Assembly: GCF_030332225.1 (NCBI RefSeq)
Contig: NZ_JAOWIF010000021.1
Coordinates: 1-64,000 of the forward strand
Reading direction: 5' to 3'
Source of the DNA: Citrobacter sp. Cu233
Lineage (GTDB): Bacteria > Pseudomonadota > Gammaproteobacteria > Enterobacterales > Enterobacteriaceae
Length of the DNA: 64,000 nt
A program made the translations under genes and the position numbers. Under the pieces are notes generated by a model, which saw only the letters and a program-made list of their open reading frames with translations, had not been told where the DNA came from and searched no databases. Every line of letters begins with the position of its first letter. Within the stretch, counting starts at the first letter, position 1. Below are positions 4,760-32,752 of this stretch, one piece after another.

Positions 4760-6582
<1,823 letters not shown>

Positions 6583-7649: not shown

Positions 7650-10600
7650 GTGAGCAGCAAAGTTGAACAATTACGTCAGCAGTTAAAAGAACGTATTCTG
7701 GTATTGGACGGCGGTATGGGCACCATGATCCAGGGTTACCGTCTGAGTGAAGAAGATTTCCGCGGCGAACGCTTTGCCGACTGGCCATGCGATCTAAAAG
7801 GCAACAACGACCTGTTGGTGCTGAGCAAGCCGGAGGTGATCACCGCGATTCATAACGCCTACTTTGAAGCTGGCGCGGATATCATCGAAACCAATACCTT
7901 CAACTCGACGACCATCGCCATGGCGGATTACCAGATGGAATCCCTGTCGGCGGAAATCAACTTTGCCGCTGCGAAACTGGCGCGCGCCTGCGCGGATGAG
8001 TGGACGGCCCGTACACCGGAAAAACCGCGCTACGTCGCTGGCGTGCTTGGCCCAACCAACCGCACGGCATCTATCTCGCCAGACGTAAATGACCCGGCTT
8101 ACCGCAATATTACCTTTGATCAGCTGGTGGCCGCCTACCGCGAATCCACCAAAGCGCTGGTGGAAGGCGGCAGTGACCTGATCCTGATTGAAACTGTTTT
8201 CGATACCCTCAACGCCAAGGCGGCGATTTTTGCGGTGAAAACAGAATTTGAAGCACTGGGTGTTGAGCTGCCGATCATGCTCTCCGGCACTATCACCGAT
8301 GCCTCCGGACGTACGCTCTCCGGCCAGACTACCGAAGCGTTTTATAACTCGCTGCGCCACGCCGATGCGCTGACCTTTGGTCTGAACTGCGCATTAGGCC
8401 CGGACGAGCTGCGCCAGTATGTGCAGGAACTGTCGCGCATTGCCGACTGCTATGTCACCGCACACCCGAACGCCGGTTTGCCAAACGCCTTCGGTGAGTA
8501 CGATCTCGACGCGGACACCATGGCGAAGCAAATCCGTGAATGGGCCGAAGCGGGCTTCCTTAACGTAGTGGGGGGGTGCTGCGGTACCACACCAGAACAT
8601 ATTGCCGCGATGAGTCGCGCGGTTGATGGCTTACCACCGCGCCAGCTGCCGGAAATCCCGGTGGCCTGCCGTCTGTCCGGCCTTGAGCCGCTGAACATTG
8701 GCGACGACAGTTTGTTCGTTAACGTTGGTGAACGTACCAACGTCACCGGTTCTGCCAAATTTAAGCGACTGATTAAAGAAGAGAAGTACAGTGAAGCGCT
8801 GGATGTTGCCCGTCAGCAGGTGGAAAGCGGCGCGCAGATTATCGATATCAACATGGATGAGGGGATGCTTGACGCCGAAGCGGCGATGGTGCGTTTTCTC
8901 AACCTGATCGCCGGGGAACCGGATATCGCCCGTGTACCGATTATGATCGACTCCTCGAAGTGGGAAGTCATCGAAAAAGGGCTGAAGTGCATTCAGGGTA
9001 AAGGCATCGTTAACTCCATCTCGATGAAAGAGGGGGTTGAAACCTTTATCCATCATGCGAAGCTGCTGCGTCGCTACGGCGCCGCGGTGGTGGTGATGGC
9101 TTTTGATGAGCAGGGGCAGGCCGACACCCGCGCGCGTAAAATCGAGATCTGCCGTCGGGCATACAAAATTCTTACCGAAGAGGTGGGTTTCCCGCCGGAA
9201 GACATCATCTTCGACCCGAACATCTTTGCGGTTGCAACGGGTATCGACGAGCACAACAACTATGCTCAGGACTTTATCGGTGCGTGCGAAGATATTAAAC
9301 GTGAACTGCCGCATGCACTGATCTCTGGCGGCGTCTCCAACGTGTCGTTCTCGTTCCGTGGTAACGACCCGGTGCGCGAAGCGATCCACGCCGTGTTCCT
9401 CTATTACGCTATTCGTAACGGCATGGATATGGGGATCGTTAACGCAGGACAGTTGGCAATTTACGACGACCTGCCTGCAGAACTGCGAGATGCGGTTGAA
9501 GATGTGATCCTCAACCGTCGTGACGATGGTACCGAGCGTCTGCTGGAGCTGGCCGAAAAGTACCGCGGCAGTAAAACTGACGACACCGCCAACACCCAAC
9601 TGGCGGAATGGCGTAGCTGGGACGTGAAAAAACGCCTCGAGTACTCGCTGGTGAAAGGCATTACTGAATTTATTGAGCTGGATACCGAAGAAGCGCGTCA
9701 GCTGGCTGCCCGTCCAATCGAAGTTATCGAAGGGCCACTAATGGATGGCATGAACGTCGTTGGCGACCTGTTTGGCGAAGGCAAAATGTTCCTGCCGCAG
9801 GTGGTGAAATCTGCCCGCGTAATGAAGCAGGCAGTGGCCTACCTCGAACCGTACATTGAAGCCAGCAAAGAGAAAGGTTCCAGCAACGGCAAGATGGTCA
9901 TTGCCACCGTGAAAGGTGATGTACACGACATTGGCAAAAACATCGTCGGCGTGGTGCTGCAGTGTAACAACTACGAAATCGTCGATCTTGGCGTGATGGT
10001 TCCCGCGGAGAAAATCCTCCGAACGGCGCGCGAAGTGAATGCCGATTTGATTGGTCTTTCCGGACTGATTACTCCGTCACTGGACGAAATGGTCAACGTG
10101 GCGAAAGAGATGGAACGTCAGGGCTTCACCATTCCGCTGTTGATTGGTGGAGCGACCACCTCCAAAGCGCATACGGCGGTGAAAATCGAGCAGAACTACA
10201 GTGGCCCGACGGTGTATGTGCAAAACGCCTCGCGTACCGTTGGCGTTGTTGCCGCGTTGCTTTCCGATACCCAGCGTGACGACTTCGTTGCCCGTACACG
10301 TAAAGAGTACGAAACCGTGCGTATCCAGCATGCGCGTAAAAAACCGCGCACCCCACCGGTCACACTGGCCGCGGCGCGTGAAAACGATCTGGCCTTTGAC
10401 TGGGAAAGTTATACCCCGCCGGTGGCCCATCGCCTGGGCGTACAGGAAGTTGAAGCCAGTATCGAAACGCTGCGTAATTACATCGACTGGACGCCATTCT
10501 TTATGACCTGGTCGCTGGCTGGAAAATATCCACGTATCCTGGAAGATGAAGTGGTGGGTGAAGAGGCGAAGCGCCTGTTCAAAGATGCCAACGATATGCT

Positions 10601-24910: not shown

Positions 24911-26491
24911 TCATGTTCCGCAGCGAACGCTTTCCCAGCTCAGTCCAAAACGGGCGAGATATTTTCGCAGGCGATCGGCATCGTTAGGATTGGCTTTTTT
25001 CTGCCGCGAAACGGCAAACAGTTCGCGTCCGGCTTCCGACAGCGACGCACAGCGGCGGCACACTTCCAGCACCGTTTCTAACTGGCGGCGATCGAACAGG
25101 TCAATGTCCATGTTCAGTTCAGGTTGCGAAGCGGCGATCTGCCAGCTCTCCTTTAACAGCGCAATCTCTTCTTCGACAAGGGATAAGGTGATGCGACCTT
25201 GTTCGGCAAGTGTCGCCATGCGCGCGATGGATGAGCTTAGCTCGCGAAAATTGCCGCGCCATTGCGCCTGTGGGGAGCAGGCAAATGCCAGATAGCAAAC
25301 ACGTGCCTCTTTATCGAAACGGATCTGCGTCTGTTTATTGCTGGAAAAACGTTGCAGTTCATACTCGACGTTCGGGGCGATATCTTCCCGCCGCTGCGCC
25401 AGACCGGGTAGGGCGAAGCTCCACATATTGATACGCGCGTAGAGATCCTCGCGAAAACGGCCCTCAGCGACCCACTGTGACATGTTGCGATGGGTTCCGG
25501 CAATCAGCTGAAAATCGCTGTGTACTTCTTTGTCCGACCCAAACGGGAAAAAGGTTTTTTCTTCAATCGCTTTTAGCAGCATGGCCTGCTCATCCAGCCC
25601 CAACTCGGCAATCTCATCGAGAAACAGCACGCCGCCATCCGCTTCTCGCAGCAATCCGCTACGTGCCGTGAGTGCGCCAGTAAACGCCCCCTTCACATGA
25701 CCAAATAACGTGGACATCGCATTATCGCCGCGTAGGGTCGCGCAGTTGACTGCGACCAGTTTTCCCGCCATCAGATGCCGCGACTGGCGCAGCTGAAAAA
25801 TACGTTTCGCGAGGAAGGATTTGCCCGCGCCGGTAGGGCCGGTCAGCAGGATCGGGTCGGTCGAACGCAGAGCCACCCGCTCAATGCGATCGATCAGTTT
25901 ATTGAACGTGGCGTTGCGCGTATCAATCCCGGCTTTCAAAAAAGAGACCGACTGCTGCTGCTCGCGCTGAAAGCGACTGGTGAGCGTGGCATAGCGACTT
26001 AAATCGAGGTCGATAACCGAGCAGACGCCAGCAGCGACGGCTTCATCAGTAGAACCTTTTGGCGCCGGGCTGGTTTGCAGCAGGCTGGCGGGCAGGTAGC
26101 GCGCTTCCGTCAGCAAAAACCAGCAGATCTGCGCCACGTGAGTGCCGGTGGTGATGTGCACCAGATACTCTTCGTTTTCCGTATCAAATTCATAATTCGT
26201 GGCAAAGTCGAGAAACGCGGCGTAGACCTCTTCAAAATCCCACGGATCGTTAATGGTTACGGTATGCGGGCGGACTTCGGTGTGAGGCGAAAGCAGCACA
26301 ACGTCTTCAATCAATCTTTGCACCATGCTCTCATCGCGTGGCTGGTGGAGGAGTTCCAGCCTGTCGACAGGGAAATCAGGCTGTTGGCATAGCCCAACTG
26401 TGGGGCGCCACTTCTTAAACCGATTGGCTCGCTTGCCGCGTTTATCCAGCACCGTTCCCAGTACGCCAATCACTACCCGTCGCTTCTTCAT
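24911..26491 (-). CDS. RtcR-like sigma-54-dependent transcriptional activator (N-terminal CARF-like domain + AAA+ GAFTGA domain + C-terminal HTH)
   Basis: 526 aa; N-terminus MKKRRVVIGVLGTVLDKRGKRANRFKKWRPTVGLCQQ resembles RtcR CARF; Walker A GPTGAGKS, GAFTGA, Walker B FLDEI; second paralog besides the canonical rtcR locus. Confidence 0.8.
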   Translation of the reverse strand: MKKRRVVIGVLGTVLDKRGKRANRFKKWRPTVGLCQQPDFPVDRLELLHQPRDESMVQRLIEDVVLLSPHTEVRPHTVTINDPWDFEEVYAAFLDFATNYEFDTENEEYLVHITTGTHVAQICWFLLTEARYLPASLLQTSPAPKGSTDEAVAAGVCSVIDLDLSRYATLTSRFQREQQQSVSFLKAGIDTRNATFNKLIDRIERVALRSTDPILLTGPTGAGKSFLAKRIFQLRQSRHLMAGKLVAVNCATLRGDNAMSTLFGHVKGAFTGALTARSGLLREADGGVLFLDEIAELGLDEQAMLLKAIEEKTFFPFGSDKEVHSDFQLIAGTHRNMSQWVAEGRFREDLYARINMWSFALPGLAQRREDIAPNVEYELQRFSSNKQTQIRFDKEARVCYLAFACSPQAQWRGNFRELSSSIARMATLAEQGRITLSLVEEEIALLKESWQIAASQPELNMDIDLFDRRQLETVLEVCRRCASLSEAGRELFAVSRQKKANPNDADRLRKYLARFGLSWESVRCGT

Positions 26492-26626
26492 GGTTTATCC
26501 AAAAAGATAAATAAGAGAATAAAAGATAAAAAATTTAACCCATCAAGACAATCGTCATTATTGGTGGAGGTAATTTAAATAATAAAAATCAATTAATTAA
26601 AAATTAATTATGCCAATGTTAATTCC

Positions 26627-26642
26627 TGGCACGCTTCTGGCA
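26627..26642 (+). promoter_or_regulatory. Sigma-54 (-24/-12) promoter TGGCACGCTTCTGGCA driving the SPFH/NTase operon
   Basis: Matches TGGCAC-N5-TTGCA at GG/GC with correct 12-nt spacing; lies between the divergent rtcR-like gene and the operon; preceded by an AT-rich stretch at 26500–26620. Confidence 0.55.
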
Positions 26643-26939
26643 ATAACACTTTAGTCAATCACGCTGAAAGCGCAGGGGGTTAAACCCCGCCGGCACGTCA
26701 GGAACTGCACAGGCTGTTTTCCGGGAGTGTTCCGTCAGCCGATGACCACCCAACGGGTTCGATTCCCGATTCATTCTCCCAATGAAACTGGTTGTTAATC
26801 ATAGAAATAAAACGGAGCAATGCGCAGTTAGCACGCTCCAGAACAGGCTGCCGGTAAAGATGCCGTGCGACAGGCAAAAGGGAATTCCCCTGCCGCTTCG
26901 CCCCTGCACCCGCGCCTGGCTCACAATAAGGAATAATAA

Positions 26940-28067
26940 ATGATGAAGAAAATCACTATACAAAAAGCGCAGTTAGGTCTTTTATCCCGCGAGGGCGATT
27001 ACTATCAGGCACTGGAAGCGGGTCAGCACCGTTTACCGTGGTTTAACACCCCGGAAGTGCTGATCGTTAATAGGGATGGCAGCGAAGTACCGGAAGCGTT
27101 AGCGGAGTATTTGCGCCGCTTTCAGCCCTCCTGGGTGGAACGTTACTGCCTGGTCGCGGATACGACGGACACCGAAGCCGGGGCGCTGTATGTCAATGGC
27201 GTTTTGCAGGAGATCCTGCCACCGGCAACGCGCCGTCTGTACTGGCAGGCCGATGAGGCACTGAACCTGGTGCGCATGGATACGCGTCAGGTTCAGGTAC
27301 CACCGGACGTTATGAATGCAGTATTACAGCCACGCCGCAGCGGTACAGTAAAAGGCCGTGACGCGATCTTAACGGTGCAGGTTCCGGCGTGGCACGTCGG
27401 CGTGTTGAAAATCGATGGCGAAACCCAGGCGCTGTTGCCGCCAGGATTAACAGCTTACTGGAAGGTAAACCATCTGATTGAAGCGGAAGTCGTTGATACC
27501 CGTTTACAAGTTCTGGAGGTCGGCGGCCAGGAGATCCTGACCAAAGATAAGGTCAACCTGCGTTTAAACCTGGCGGCGAACTGGCGTTACAGCGATGTGT
27601 TGCTGGCTTTTGGCCAACTGACTAAACCGCTGGAGCACCTTTACCGCGAGTTGCAGTTTGCGCTGCGTGAGGCTGTCGGTACTCGAACGCTGGACGAGCT
27701 GCTGGAAGATAAGCAGGTGATTGACGATGTGGTGAGCACGCAGGTGAAAACCCGCATGACGCCGTTTGGTATCGAGGTGGATTCGCTGGGCGTGAAAGAT
27801 ATCGTCCTGCCGGGCGATATGAAAGCCATTTTGTCGCAACTGGTTGAAGCGGAAAAATCCGCCCAGGCCAACGTCATTCGTCGACGCGAAGAAACCGCCG
27901 CGACGCGATCGCTGTTGAATACCGCAAAAGTGATGGAAAACAACCCGGTGGCGCTGCGTTTAAAAGAGCTGGAAACCCTCGAAAGAGTGGCGGAGCGTAT
28001 CGATAAAATCTCGGTATTCGGTGGCCTTGACCAGGTGCTGCACGGTCTGGTGAATATAAAAGGATAA
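26940..28067 (+). CDS. SPFH/band-7 (slipin-like) domain protein, apparently lacking a TM anchor
   Basis: 375 aa; SPFH core about residues 190–330 (ILTKDKVNLRLNL...; coiled C-terminus); AAGGA SD; no hydrophobic helix evident. Confidence 0.75.
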   Translation: MMKKITIQKAQLGLLSREGDYYQALEAGQHRLPWFNTPEVLIVNRDGSEVPEALAEYLRRFQPSWVERYCLVADTTDTEAGALYVNGVLQEILPPATRRLYWQADEALNLVRMDTRQVQVPPDVMNAVLQPRRSGTVKGRDAILTVQVPAWHVGVLKIDGETQALLPPGLTAYWKVNHLIEAEVVDTRLQVLEVGGQEILTKDKVNLRLNLAANWRYSDVLLAFGQLTKPLEHLYRELQFALREAVGTRTLDELLEDKQVIDDVVSTQVKTRMTPFGIEVDSLGVKDIVLPGDMKAILSQLVEAEKSAQANVIRRREETAATRSLLNTAKVMENNPVALRLKELETLERVAERIDKISVFGGLDQVLHGLVNIKG

Positions 28068-28072
28068 GTGAA

Positions 28073-28858
28073 ATGAGCGACAACGGAGTGAATGCCGCGA
28101 TGCGCGAACGGGTGTTTCGCCAGCTAAAAGAAGTGGAGCGGCGCTATAACGTCAAAGTGCTATACGCCTGCGAATCCGGCAGCCGTGGCTGGGGATTTGC
28201 CTCGCCGGACAGCGATTACGACGTGCGATTTCTCTATGTTCATCCCCCCGAATGGTATCTGCGGGTCGAAGCGCCACGAGATGTTATCGAACTGCCGATA
28301 GATGATGAGCTGGACGTGTGCGGCTGGGAATGGCGCAAGGCGCTGGGGTTGCTCAAAGACGCAAACCCGACGCTTATCGAGTGGCTGGATTCGCCGGTGA
28401 TCTATCTGCAGGACGAAGTGGCGGTGTCGGCGTTGAAAACGTTGGTGCCTAAATGGTTTTCCCCGCTACGTGCCCGCTGGCACTACTATTCGATGGCGCG
28501 GAAAAACTTTCGCGGTTATCTGCAGGGTGACGACGTGCGATTGAAGAAGTACTTCTACGTTCTGCGACCACTGTTGGCGGTGCGTTGGGTGGAAGCAGGG
28601 AAGGGTGTGCCGCCGATGCGTTTTGCCGATCTGCTGGTGGGAAGTGAACTGGATGCGCCATTGTGTCAGGAAATCGACGAATTGTTGGCACGCAAACAGC
28701 GGTCAGGTGAGGCTGAGTATGGTCCGCGTCGTCCATTGCTACATGCGTTTATCCGCGCCGAACTGGAGAGAGGAGAAATCCCACCGACGTTACCGGACAG
28801 CCGGGAAGGGGATGCCAGGGAACTGGACAGACTGTTATATGACACGGTGATGCGGTGA
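28073..28858 (+). CDS. Pol-beta superfamily nucleotidyltransferase domain protein
   Basis: 261 aa; GSRGWGFASPDSDYDV (GS-x9-D-x-D NTase motif); starts 5 nt after the SPFH stop, so translationally coupled. Confidence 0.7.
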   Translation: MSDNGVNAAMRERVFRQLKEVERRYNVKVLYACESGSRGWGFASPDSDYDVRFLYVHPPEWYLRVEAPRDVIELPIDDELDVCGWEWRKALGLLKDANPTLIEWLDSPVIYLQDEVAVSALKTLVPKWFSPLRARWHYYSMARKNFRGYLQGDDVRLKKYFYVLRPLLAVRWVEAGKGVPPMRFADLLVGSELDAPLCQEIDELLARKQRSGEAEYGPRRPLLHAFIRAELERGEIPPTLPDSREGDARELDRLLYDTVMR

Positions 28859-30250: not shown

Positions 30251-30261
30251 AACTACCTCGT

Positions 30262-30520
30262 GTCAGGGAATAAATAGAGCGACCATGGCACATAAGGCAG
30301 AACAGAAACCGGTGCAGGCGCAAATGCAAATACCGTATTTATAAATAAAATGTGTAGCCTGTACTGTCAACGCTGGGATTATGCGGATTTTTCATGCTGC
30401 ATTAGCGCTGAGTAACAGTGCTTATAACAGCCCTACACGTCATCCTTCAAACTGCCTCTGTGTTGACTGCGCCTGCTCACCTCAGCCACATACTTCAGTA
30501 AACTTCTGGGGACGCACCGG
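30262..30520 (-). ncRNA. lysC 5' leader with lysine riboswitch (L-box), approximate bounds
   Basis: Established: E. coli lysC carries a roughly 300-nt leader with a lysine riboswitch; about 420-nt non-coding gap between lysC and pgi here; motifs not verified by eye. Confidence 0.5.
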
Positions 30521-30623
30521 CTTGTCGCCTTGACGCAGGTTGAAAGATTTTGTGTATATACTTTTTACCCGGGTTCGATGGACACAAGGGCAATGGCATT
30601 AAAACAATCACACTTTTCGGTGA

Positions 30624-32327
<1,704 letters not shown>

Positions 32328-32329
32328 TA

Positions 32330-32400
32330 GCGCTGCGCTTATCCGGCCTGCAGGTACATACCCTGTAGGCCGGATAAGGCGTTTCGCCGCCATCCGGCAA
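32330..32400. repeat. REP elements after pgi
   Basis: cttatccggcctgcagg...ctgtaggccggataaggcg...ccatccggca. Confidence 0.5.
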
Positions 32401-32413
32401 GCAAGAATGAAAT

Positions 32414-32445
32414 AAAAAAGCCGATATTAATATCGGCTTTTTTTA
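32414..32445 (+). terminator. Rho-independent terminator (pgi)
   Basis: AAAAAGCCGATA-ttaa-TATCGGCTTTTTTT. Confidence 0.6.
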
Positions 32446-32752
32446 TAAGATTACTCCGGGATATTTACGTTTTTTCTTCATCTTTTAATTGAGCTTAATC
32501 CTAAAATAATTTATTCAACGTTGCTCTATTTCTAATGTTTTCAGATTTACCGGATATTGTGTTTTTTATTATCATATTTTAATTAATTGATTTTAATTAT
32601 TTTTATTATTTGTTGTTAATCATTTTCTCTCTCGTTATCTAATTGTCCTAAATTCCCTCCCGACCTAATTTGCACACTTCGCTTGTGTATACTCGACCTC
32701 GCCCGAAATTCTTTTGGGTAAATCTCCATTCATGCAATGAAGGGAATTTGTG

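Follow-up and report, generated by a model that had tools for sequence, protein, structure and literature searches.

Organization of the Locus

The 64,000-nucleotide (nt) stretch analysed here, hereafter the window, comes from Citrobacter sp. Cu233 (NCBI RefSeq assembly GCF_030332225.1, contig NZ_JAOWIF010000021.1, positions 1 to 64,000 of the forward strand). Between the activator gene rtcR and a divergently oriented gene for an SPFH/Band-7 protein it carries a promoter element of the sigma-54 (RpoN) type, from which a long leader RNA is predicted to start. As a new member of a well-known kind, the promoter is unexceptional, though its support is good; the interest of the locus lies in the leader RNA. 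The locus is a variant of the known Band-7 RNA-repair operon, in which rtcB is absent and a reduced tRNA-like element lies inside a larger conserved RNA that is missing from Rfam. The genes and control elements are as follows.

24911..26491, minus strand: rtcR, sigma-54 enhancer-binding activator with CARF, AAA+ and helix-turn-helix (HTH) regions (Pfam RtcR, 2.2e-81; Sigma54_activat, 3.1e-48)
26495..26533, no strand: candidate RtcR enhancer (upstream activating sequence, UAS), combining the palindrome TTATCCAAAAAGATAA (26495-26510) with two direct copies of AAAAGATAAA, at 26502-14 and 26521-33
26587..26599, plus strand: integration host factor (IHF)-consensus site AATCAATTAATTA (consensus WATCAANNNNTTR), at about -66 to -54 from the predicted start, overlapping the AATTAATT inverted repeat (26591-26609)
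26627..26642, plus strand: sigma-54 -24/-12 element TGGCACGCTTCTGGCA, a consensus match conserved across loci
26653..26939, plus strand: predicted non-coding leader RNA of 287 nt, conserved and structured, with its start placed at 26653 +/-1
26940..28067, plus strand: SPFH/Band-7 (slipin) protein, 375 amino acids (Pfam Band_7, 1.9e-24)
28073..28858, plus strand: RlaP (PF10127), Pol-beta nucleotidyltransferase, 261 amino acids (Pfam RlaP, 3.2e-96, full length)

The product of the divergent gene scores 820 bits on the NCBIfam RtcR equivalog, whose cut-off is 650, and is 62% identical to Escherichia coli K-12 RtcR, with a near-identical C-terminal HTH. What an earlier note on this DNA had called an RtcR-like activator is thus a true RtcR by both Pfam and the NCBIfam equivalog. 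The closest relatives of the SPFH protein are from Citrobacter, at 94% identity. Its matches to stomatin structures in the PDB span only residues 181-373, and the first 150 residues match no solved structure. No hydrophobic anchor was found in the protein, the highest 19-residue hydropathy being 0.99. An AlphaFold2 model built from 14 close homologues was discarded for its low confidence (pLDDT 37). Enzymes of the RlaP kind extend RNA 3'-OH ends by one or two nucleotides and are tied to RNA-repair ligases (PMC12776372).

For comparison, one genome per species was taken, giving 29 loci across the Enterobacteriaceae plus one Providencia, which the addition of E. coli C11 brought to 30. Strain C11 was drawn from the 403 of 5426 complete E. 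coli genomes (~7%) that carry the cassette. With the window, the set comprises 31 sequences; a 32-sequence alignment of the upstream region also takes in the K-12 rtcR-rtcB intergenic region. The "plasmid" labels attached to some of the matches were dropped, as these are mislabelled chromosomes.

Between the promoter and the convergent lysC gene, only the SPFH and RlaP genes are present, and the SPFH stop lies 5 nt from the rlaP start (window 28067-28073). In 15 relatives, a gene of ~1.24 kb occupies this junction, and its translations are RtcB (e.g., L008 5125-6367); it is cleanly missing from the window and from 13 relatives. The gene order rtcR / SPFH-rtcB-rlaP recurs in distant metagenomic loci with rtcR again divergent, and rtcR is divergent and adjacent in 28 of the 30 related loci. 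The rtc locus of Pseudomonas aeruginosa has also been reported to contain an SPFH gene (PMC13086221). The window operon is an rtcB-less derivative of the RtcR/Band-7/RtcB/RlaP RNA-repair operon.

Two relatives show further changes to the cassette. In E. coli C11 (L001), a gene of the zeta-toxin family is inserted between rlaP and lysC. In Citrobacter murliniae (L022, 4001-5026), the SPFH match ends at residue 342 and no rlaP follows, while the leader and the promoter are kept, the latter with a C-to-T change (TGGCAT); here the cassette is probably decaying.

A Conserved Sigma-54 Promoter

The 16-mer TGGCACGCTTCTGGCA agrees with TGGCACG-N4-TTGCW at 15 of 16 positions, placing the GG at 26628-29 and the GC at 26640-41 with canonical spacing; the sole mismatch is G for T at 26639, the -14 base. 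The RpoN motif had been reported in the earlier note with exact sequence and coordinates and with GG, GC and spacing as found here. Its -12 element, given there as 26639-26641, does contain the GC and is one base too generous. The orientation towards the SPFH gene holds as well, given the ATG of that gene at 26940 on the plus strand.

The pattern TGGCA(C/T)-N5-T(G/C)GC(A/T) occurs in all 30 related loci, 308-349 nt 5' of the SPFH start, and positions T1, G2, G3, C4, A5, T12, G14 and C15 of the element are invariant across the 31 sequences. The 16-mer is 88-100% identical to its counterparts in seven relatives, and the AT-rich spacer falls to 40-56% identity in the six more distant of these. 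In megablast comparisons, homology with E. coli begins at window position 26621, right at the promoter. Moreover, the same -24/-12 element is present in several of the distant metagenome loci. We therefore base the significance of the promoter on its conservation among loci and not on the number of motifs in one window. Taken together, 26627-26642 reads as an RpoN-type promoter facing the SPFH gene, and its activity would be expected to depend on rpoN and RtcR.

The start of transcription can be placed by analogy. For the K-12 rtcBA promoter, PrtcBA, a primer ApC at -1/+1 was used by Kotta-Loizou et al. (2022; PMC9650030), and in that promoter the primer AC lies 11-12 nt past the GC of the -12 element. 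By this analogy, transcription in the window would begin at about 26653 (A26653, +/-1), one base 5' of helix P1 of the leader, and the predicted leader to the ATG at 26940 measures 287 nt, close to the ~290 nt anticipated in the earlier note.

Upstream Region

The AT-rich region is less extreme than first described: the A+T content of 26500-26620 is 79.3%, not about 85%. The inverted repeat noted there is present, as AATTAATT/AATTAATT at 26591-98 and 26602-09. Sites of both kinds proposed for this region, for IHF and for an enhancer-binding activator, were also found, although their arrangement differs from that suggested, in that the inverted repeat overlaps the IHF-like site and the enhancer candidates lie elsewhere, at 26495-26533.

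The candidate enhancer adjoins the rtcR start codon, at -158 to -120 from the predicted start. When the region from the rtcR ATG to the promoter was aligned, the 31 SPFH-type sequences proved to share a TTATCC-N5-GATAA palindrome, placed 131-135 nt ahead of the -24 T. In the 64-kb window, the palindrome pattern occurs once, against 0.02 occurrences expected. Past the palindrome, GATA(A/T) motifs recur at ~10-bp phasing, with window copies at 26506-10 and 26525-29, and the two copies of AAAAGATAAA are spaced 19 nt apart. GATA-like motifs stand at matching offsets in K-12 PrtcBA, for which a UAS for RtcR and an IHF site have been reported (PMC9650030). These footprints suggest that RtcR binds at the GATAA palindrome and repeats of 26495-26533. 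Likewise, IHF may bind at 26587-99: the ATCA of this site is nearly invariant in the 32-sequence alignment, and the strict IHF consensus is found at an equal offset in 14 of the 32 sequences.

A pair of sigma-70-like hexamers, TTGCCA-16-TAACAT, was observed on the rtcR strand (26616-26643, minus strand), where it overlaps the sigma-54 -12 element. These hexamers are not above chance, and their -10 is not conserved. Possibly the pair is the rtcR promoter, which would place the IHF and enhancer sites in the 5' untranslated region of rtcR.

A Conserved and Structured Leader RNA

The earlier note had regarded the long leader as possibly regulatory. It is special beyond that proposal, being a conserved, structured RNA with a tRNA-like arm; that element and the missing rtcB had gone unnoticed. 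Leader identity to relatives ranges from 54 to 98%, against 42-68% at the 4-fold degenerate sites of the SPFH gene, as in the following comparisons.

C. pasteurii: leader 98%, SPFH 4-fold sites 68%
K. michiganensis: leader 83%, SPFH 4-fold sites 54%
E. coli: leader 69%, SPFH 4-fold sites 47%
E. bugandensis: leader 71%, SPFH 4-fold sites 43%

Judged by these identities, which lie far above those of synonymous sites, the leader is under selection and is not a mere spacer. No conserved open reading frame (ORF) was found in it, since the small ORF of 53 amino acids in the window varies in length, frame and sequence among relatives. No intrinsic terminator was found in the leader. When the whole window was searched with Rfam 15 at the gathering threshold, no family was placed at the leader, and at E<=10 on 26450-27000 the only match was a 15-nt T-arm fragment of the transfer-messenger RNA (tmRNA) model.

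Comparison of the sequences points to the following elements.

26654..26746, plus strand: 5' domain, consisting of P1 (26654-60/26741-46), P2 (26663-67/26735-39), the P3 hairpin (26672-78/26685-90) and the long P4 hairpin (26691-26708/26713-34); covariation
26754..26768, plus strand: tRNA T-arm mimic, CGGG-UUCGAUU-CCCG; motif conservation and stem covariation
26770..26796, plus strand: hairpin UUCAU-UCUCCCA-AUGAA (closed acceptor-like stem) directly after the T arm, then a conserved CUGGUUG; RNAfold
26814..26839, plus strand: hairpin H5; 7 of 8 pairs compensatory, with only 67% of cells paired in the MAFFT alignment
26846..26917, plus strand: long 3' hairpin H6, ending 10 nt before the Shine-Dalgarno sequence AAGGA (26928-32); 95-97% of cells paired, 15 of 22 pairs compensatory

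Covariation was assessed as the share of alignment cells with standard pairs, compared with that obtained after sliding the partners by 1-3 columns; pairs were counted as compensatory where both sides had changed.

5' part and T arm: 85.5% paired, 36-49% when slid; 22 compensatory, 5-13 when slid
5' domain alone, in a cleaner alignment: 91.5% paired, 39-51% when slid; 13 compensatory, 3-5 when slid
3' part: 87.9% paired, 34-50% when slid; 22 compensatory, 5-12 when slid

The stem of the T arm covaries. The hairpin after it is predicted by RNAfold in 24 of the 31 sequences, with 64% of cells paired, a register poorly aligned by MAFFT and weak covariation. A covariance model of the 5' domain, R1, gives a single match in the window (97.6 bits).

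Several other structural solutions were set aside. Alternatives to P1 are an "S stem", in which GAUGAC pairs with GUUAAUCAU, and an upstream acceptor pairing of GAUGA with UCAUC; the energies are similar and the sequences too conserved to decide. Preference was given to P1, which is kept in E. coli and shows covariation at the distant loci. A pairing between the Shine-Dalgarno region and the untranscribed promoter, proposed by RNAalifold for the full alignment, was rejected as an artefact, and an all-against-all helix scan was discarded because it was swamped by G-U-tolerant GGGG/CCCC pairs.

The tRNA-Like Element and Its Distant Homologues

The T-arm sequence GGGTTCGATTCCC occurs once in the window, against 0.09 occurrences expected, and GGTTCGAWTCC is found in 28 of the 30 related loci. 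In the window, the arm lies 186 nt 5' of the SPFH ATG and is co-oriented with the gene.

Upstream of genes for SPFH homologues of 52-64% identity, two GGTTCRANTCC motifs stand ~75 nt apart, 230-440 nt 5' of the gene, in 31 of 39 loci. ARAGORN calls tRNA-like genes at this place in 20 of 30 distant loci, with anticodons that are unrelated or malformed, and one such unit scores 58.5 bits on the Rfam tRNA model. The layout consists of a 5' domain, then either a mini unit (acceptor and T arm) or a full tRNA-like unit, and then a full unit. Model R1 matches 18 distant loci, all on the gene strand and just 5' of the tRNA-like units (E = 5e-4 to 0.16, values that are rough). In an alignment fitted to the model, 92% of the cells of these matches are paired and 23 of 31 pairs are compensatory. 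The four-helix 5' domain is thereby conserved out to SPFH homologues of only 52-60% identity.

Because the enterobacterial leader has a single T arm, lacks D and anticodon arms and yields no tRNA call, we regard it as a reduced relative of the distant tandem tRNA-like units. In Superficieibacter, Franconibacter, Siccibacter, Kosakonia and the locus L067, an upstream GCGAA pairs with UUCGC after the T arm (GCAAA with UUUGC in Siccibacter). The window no longer has this upstream acceptor strand, and the 3' strand there finds its partner downstream. Loss of the upstream strand together with the downstream pairing would yield the closed-stem topology of the Y RNA YrlA.

Two further observations were made at distant loci. 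On the metagenome contigs L095, L100, L103, L104 and L108, 5-11 ordinary-looking tRNA genes lie 1-2.5 kb upstream of the Band-7 gene, and L077, L084 and L090 have a second rtcB upstream. The tRNA arrays and the second rtcB may reflect a mobile or phage-like context of tRNA-targeting conflict.

Comparison with Known Systems

The closest counterpart of the control region is E. coli PrtcBA (Genschik et al., 1998; Kotta-Loizou et al., 2022; PMC9650030). In the two promoters alike, rtcR is divergent and lies ~135 bp from the -24 element; they also share an AT-rich spacer, an IHF site, GATA-type motifs at -130, -112 and -103, and a core of the form TGGCACG-N4-T(T/G)GCA. The K-12 promoter differs in that its -12 element is a perfect TTGCA and its leader, of only ~35 nt, leads into rtcB-rtcA, whereas in the window the -12 element is TGGCA, the leader is structured and 287 nt long, and SPFH-rlaP follows without rtcB or rtcA.

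The leader invites comparison with b7a-tRNA (short for a tRNA associated with band 7), which, according to the account of Wang et al. (2018; 10.1101/312249), was predicted by Burroughs and Aravind (2016; NAR 44:8525) beside Band-7 and RtcB genes. As described by Wang et al., b7a-tRNA bears a strong likeness to genuine tRNA and is still a prediction awaiting validation. Going by that description, both are non-coding tRNA-like elements that lie just 5' of a Band-7 gene and point the same way, within an operon controlled by RtcR and containing RlaP. A further likeness to the described element runs through the distant SPFH homologues, in which one or two tRNA-like units stand at the matching place, preceded by a matching 5' domain. 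Set against b7a-tRNA, which is known here by its description, the window has only the T arm and the adjoining stem and no full cloverleaf. By the same account, it differs further in that its element forms part of a larger RNA, which adds a 3' hairpin and a conserved 5' domain, and in the absence of rtcB. The strong resemblance to tRNA is found in the distant homologues and not in the window.

YrlA, compared here by its published description (PMC4201824; Wang et al., 2018), offers a second likeness. Both RNAs have a UUCGA-type T loop, then a closed acceptor-like hairpin, which for the window leader is a predicted one, then a segment containing GG, and both are encoded in an RtcR-controlled RNA-repair operon. 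The window differs in lacking a D stem and in its linker, which is AC where YrlA has UA. In the window, CUGGUUG follows the stem; the Franconibacter/Siccibacter/Kosakonia group lacks this motif. GNCGAAN0-1G, the motif by which YrlA binds Ro, was not found in the window and occurs in one of the 31 sequences. No Rsr/Ro60 protein (TROVE domain) was found among the six genes around the promoter that were scanned against Pfam.

Interpretation and Alternatives

Considering what was observed, namely a motif conserved among loci, footprints upstream of it, the identities of the genes, and an RNA that is conserved and covaries, we judge it probable that the locus holds an RtcR-dependent sigma-54 promoter built like PrtcBA, that the leader is the operon's own structured RNA, a reduced form of the "b7a-tRNA" units, and that the operon has lost rtcB. 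By analogy with Salmonella and E. coli, RNA damage would generate tRNA fragments ending in 2',3'-cyclic phosphate, which would be sensed by the CARF domain of RtcR; tRNA fragments with such ends have been reported as the ligand of this domain (PMC7790460). RtcR would then occupy the GATAA palindrome and repeats (26495-26533), with IHF introducing a bend at 26587-99, and the AAA+ domain of RtcR would open the closed complex of E-sigma54, with transcription proceeding from ~26653. The resulting transcript would encode SPFH/Band-7 and RlaP, and its first 287 nt would fold as the structured RNA. This RNA may work as a cofactor or substrate mimic for an SPFH scaffold and RlaP, as has been proposed for b7a-tRNA and for Ro/Y RNA.

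A number of observations weigh against this reading. The -14 base is G in the window (C in E. coli and relatives), where the consensus has T, and K-12 PrtcBA, though it matches the consensus, was reported to be very weak in vitro (PMC9650030). In the 64-kb window, one-mismatch matches to the motif are at chance level (2 against 1.03 expected; 26 of 100 shuffled windows reach 2). Neither rtcB nor rtcA was found among the window genes between the promoter and lysC, so "RNA repair" here needs a ligase encoded elsewhere. With ARAGORN, neither the window nor any of 20 enterobacterial loci yields a tRNA call. The minimum free energy of the leader is no better than that of shuffled sequences (z = -0.42), so the case for its structure is a comparative one, built on covariation. 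The helices flanking the T arm are ambiguous, as GAUGAC has three possible partners: the 5' end (as in P1), the strand that follows the T arm, and GUUAAUCAU. The 3' hairpin goes undetected beyond the Enterobacterales: its model R2 matches Providencia and not the distant loci, and since Providencia is the only match outside the family, we make no claim of deep conservation for this hairpin. Finally, two Escherichia loci (L001, which is E. coli C11, and L013) have no adjacent rtcR.

Along with the promoter and the leader, the Escherichia carriers keep the GATAA motifs and ~12 nt from the 5' end of rtcR. The L001 regions bearing on this and on the zeta-toxin insertion are 5792-6020 and 8281-9207. 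With rtcR gone and the upstream motifs kept, the Escherichia cassette is likely to be controlled by the RtcR of the separate rtcBA locus.

The same evidence bears on other explanations. A chance match, with the SPFH gene transcribed from another promoter, is what the chance-level frequency of one-mismatch motifs and the sigma-70-like pair on the opposite strand would suggest. Against this, the motif occupies a fixed place in 30 of 30 loci with GG and GC invariant, while its flanks drift to 40-56% identity; the cognate activator RtcR is encoded next to it, and no sigma-70-like site was found on the plus strand. We consider this explanation very hard to sustain. Hardly more credible is the view that the leader is a decaying relic, now functionless, of tRNA-like genes whose operon is on its way to being lost. 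The cloverleaf is indeed lost, as are rtcB in 14 of the 31 sequences (the window counted) and rtcR in Escherichia, and both the truncated SPFH gene of L022 and the unremarkable folding energy (z-score -0.42) fit such decay. A relic is, however, difficult to reconcile with leader identities far above those of SPFH synonymous sites (98% against 68%, 83% against 54% and 69% against 47%), with dozens of compensatory pair changes, or with SPFH and RlaP ORFs that are intact and full length.

A more serious, though still unlikely, alternative accepts the promoter and holds that the leader is purely cis-acting: an attenuator, switch or processing platform that sets the translation of SPFH and RlaP or the stability of their mRNA, with no separate RNA or cofactor. 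The leader is part of the mRNA and has no internal terminator; four AUGA/UCAU segments (26742-45, 26771-74, 26783-86 and 26799-802) permit mutually exclusive pairings, as in an attenuator, and H6 ends only 10 nt from the Shine-Dalgarno sequence. Yet with the untranscribed promoter left out, no predicted helix covers either the start codon or the Shine-Dalgarno sequence, and the alternative pairings are missing in E. coli, which retains only P1 and the closed stem. Moreover, at this place the distant homologues carry near-authentic tRNAs, and it is normal for cells to cut such tRNAs out as stable RNAs. At the other extreme, and rather unlikely in our estimation, the leader might be a distinct composite non-coding RNA, made up of the 5' domain and a tRNA "top-half" mimic, that is released and loaded on the anchor-less SPFH protein. 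The product would be a cytoplasmic vault- or Ro/Y-like ribonucleoprotein presenting damaged tRNA ends to RlaP and a trans-encoded RtcB; alternatively, the RNA would serve as a bait whose cleavage by tRNA toxins yields cyclic-phosphate fragments that activate RtcR.

RNA repair under RtcR control is a stress and anti-toxin response, in which the roles of the accessory SPFH/Band-7 protein, RlaP and tRNA-like RNA have never been tested. Read as an RtcR-controlled operon with its own structured RNA, the locus offers a compact and genetically tractable version from the Enterobacteriaceae, with one promoter whose enhancer, IHF and -24/-12 footprints are clear, one structured RNA, two proteins and no ligase in cis. 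This compactness makes two questions directly testable: whether the tRNA-like RNA is a stable species, and what role the SPFH/RNA/RlaP trio plays without RtcB. The comparison also indicates how far tRNA-like genes in tandem can be reduced, leaving a module of T arm and closed acceptor stem, the topology of the YrlA Y RNAs.

Other Features of the Window

Downstream of the cassette, no lysine riboswitch (RF00168) was detected 5' of lysC (window 30251-30680, minus strand), whether the gathering threshold or E<=1 was applied. The Citrobacter loci L002, L003 and L012 likewise have no RF00168 upstream of lysC, and at the corresponding place this family scores 99.5 bits in E. coli and 91.3 bits in Klebsiella michiganensis. 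Both ends of the lysC-pgi intergenic region align with E. coli, and its middle does not. The only Rfam family to reach its gathering score in the 64-kb window is STnc430, an enterobacterial small RNA, at 32407-32568 on the minus strand (125.9 bits). An ORF of 557 amino acids with no Pfam domain (30720-32393, minus strand) runs antisense to one of 551 amino acids at the E. coli pgi position (30672-32327, plus strand); the minus-strand frame is most likely a shadow ORF.

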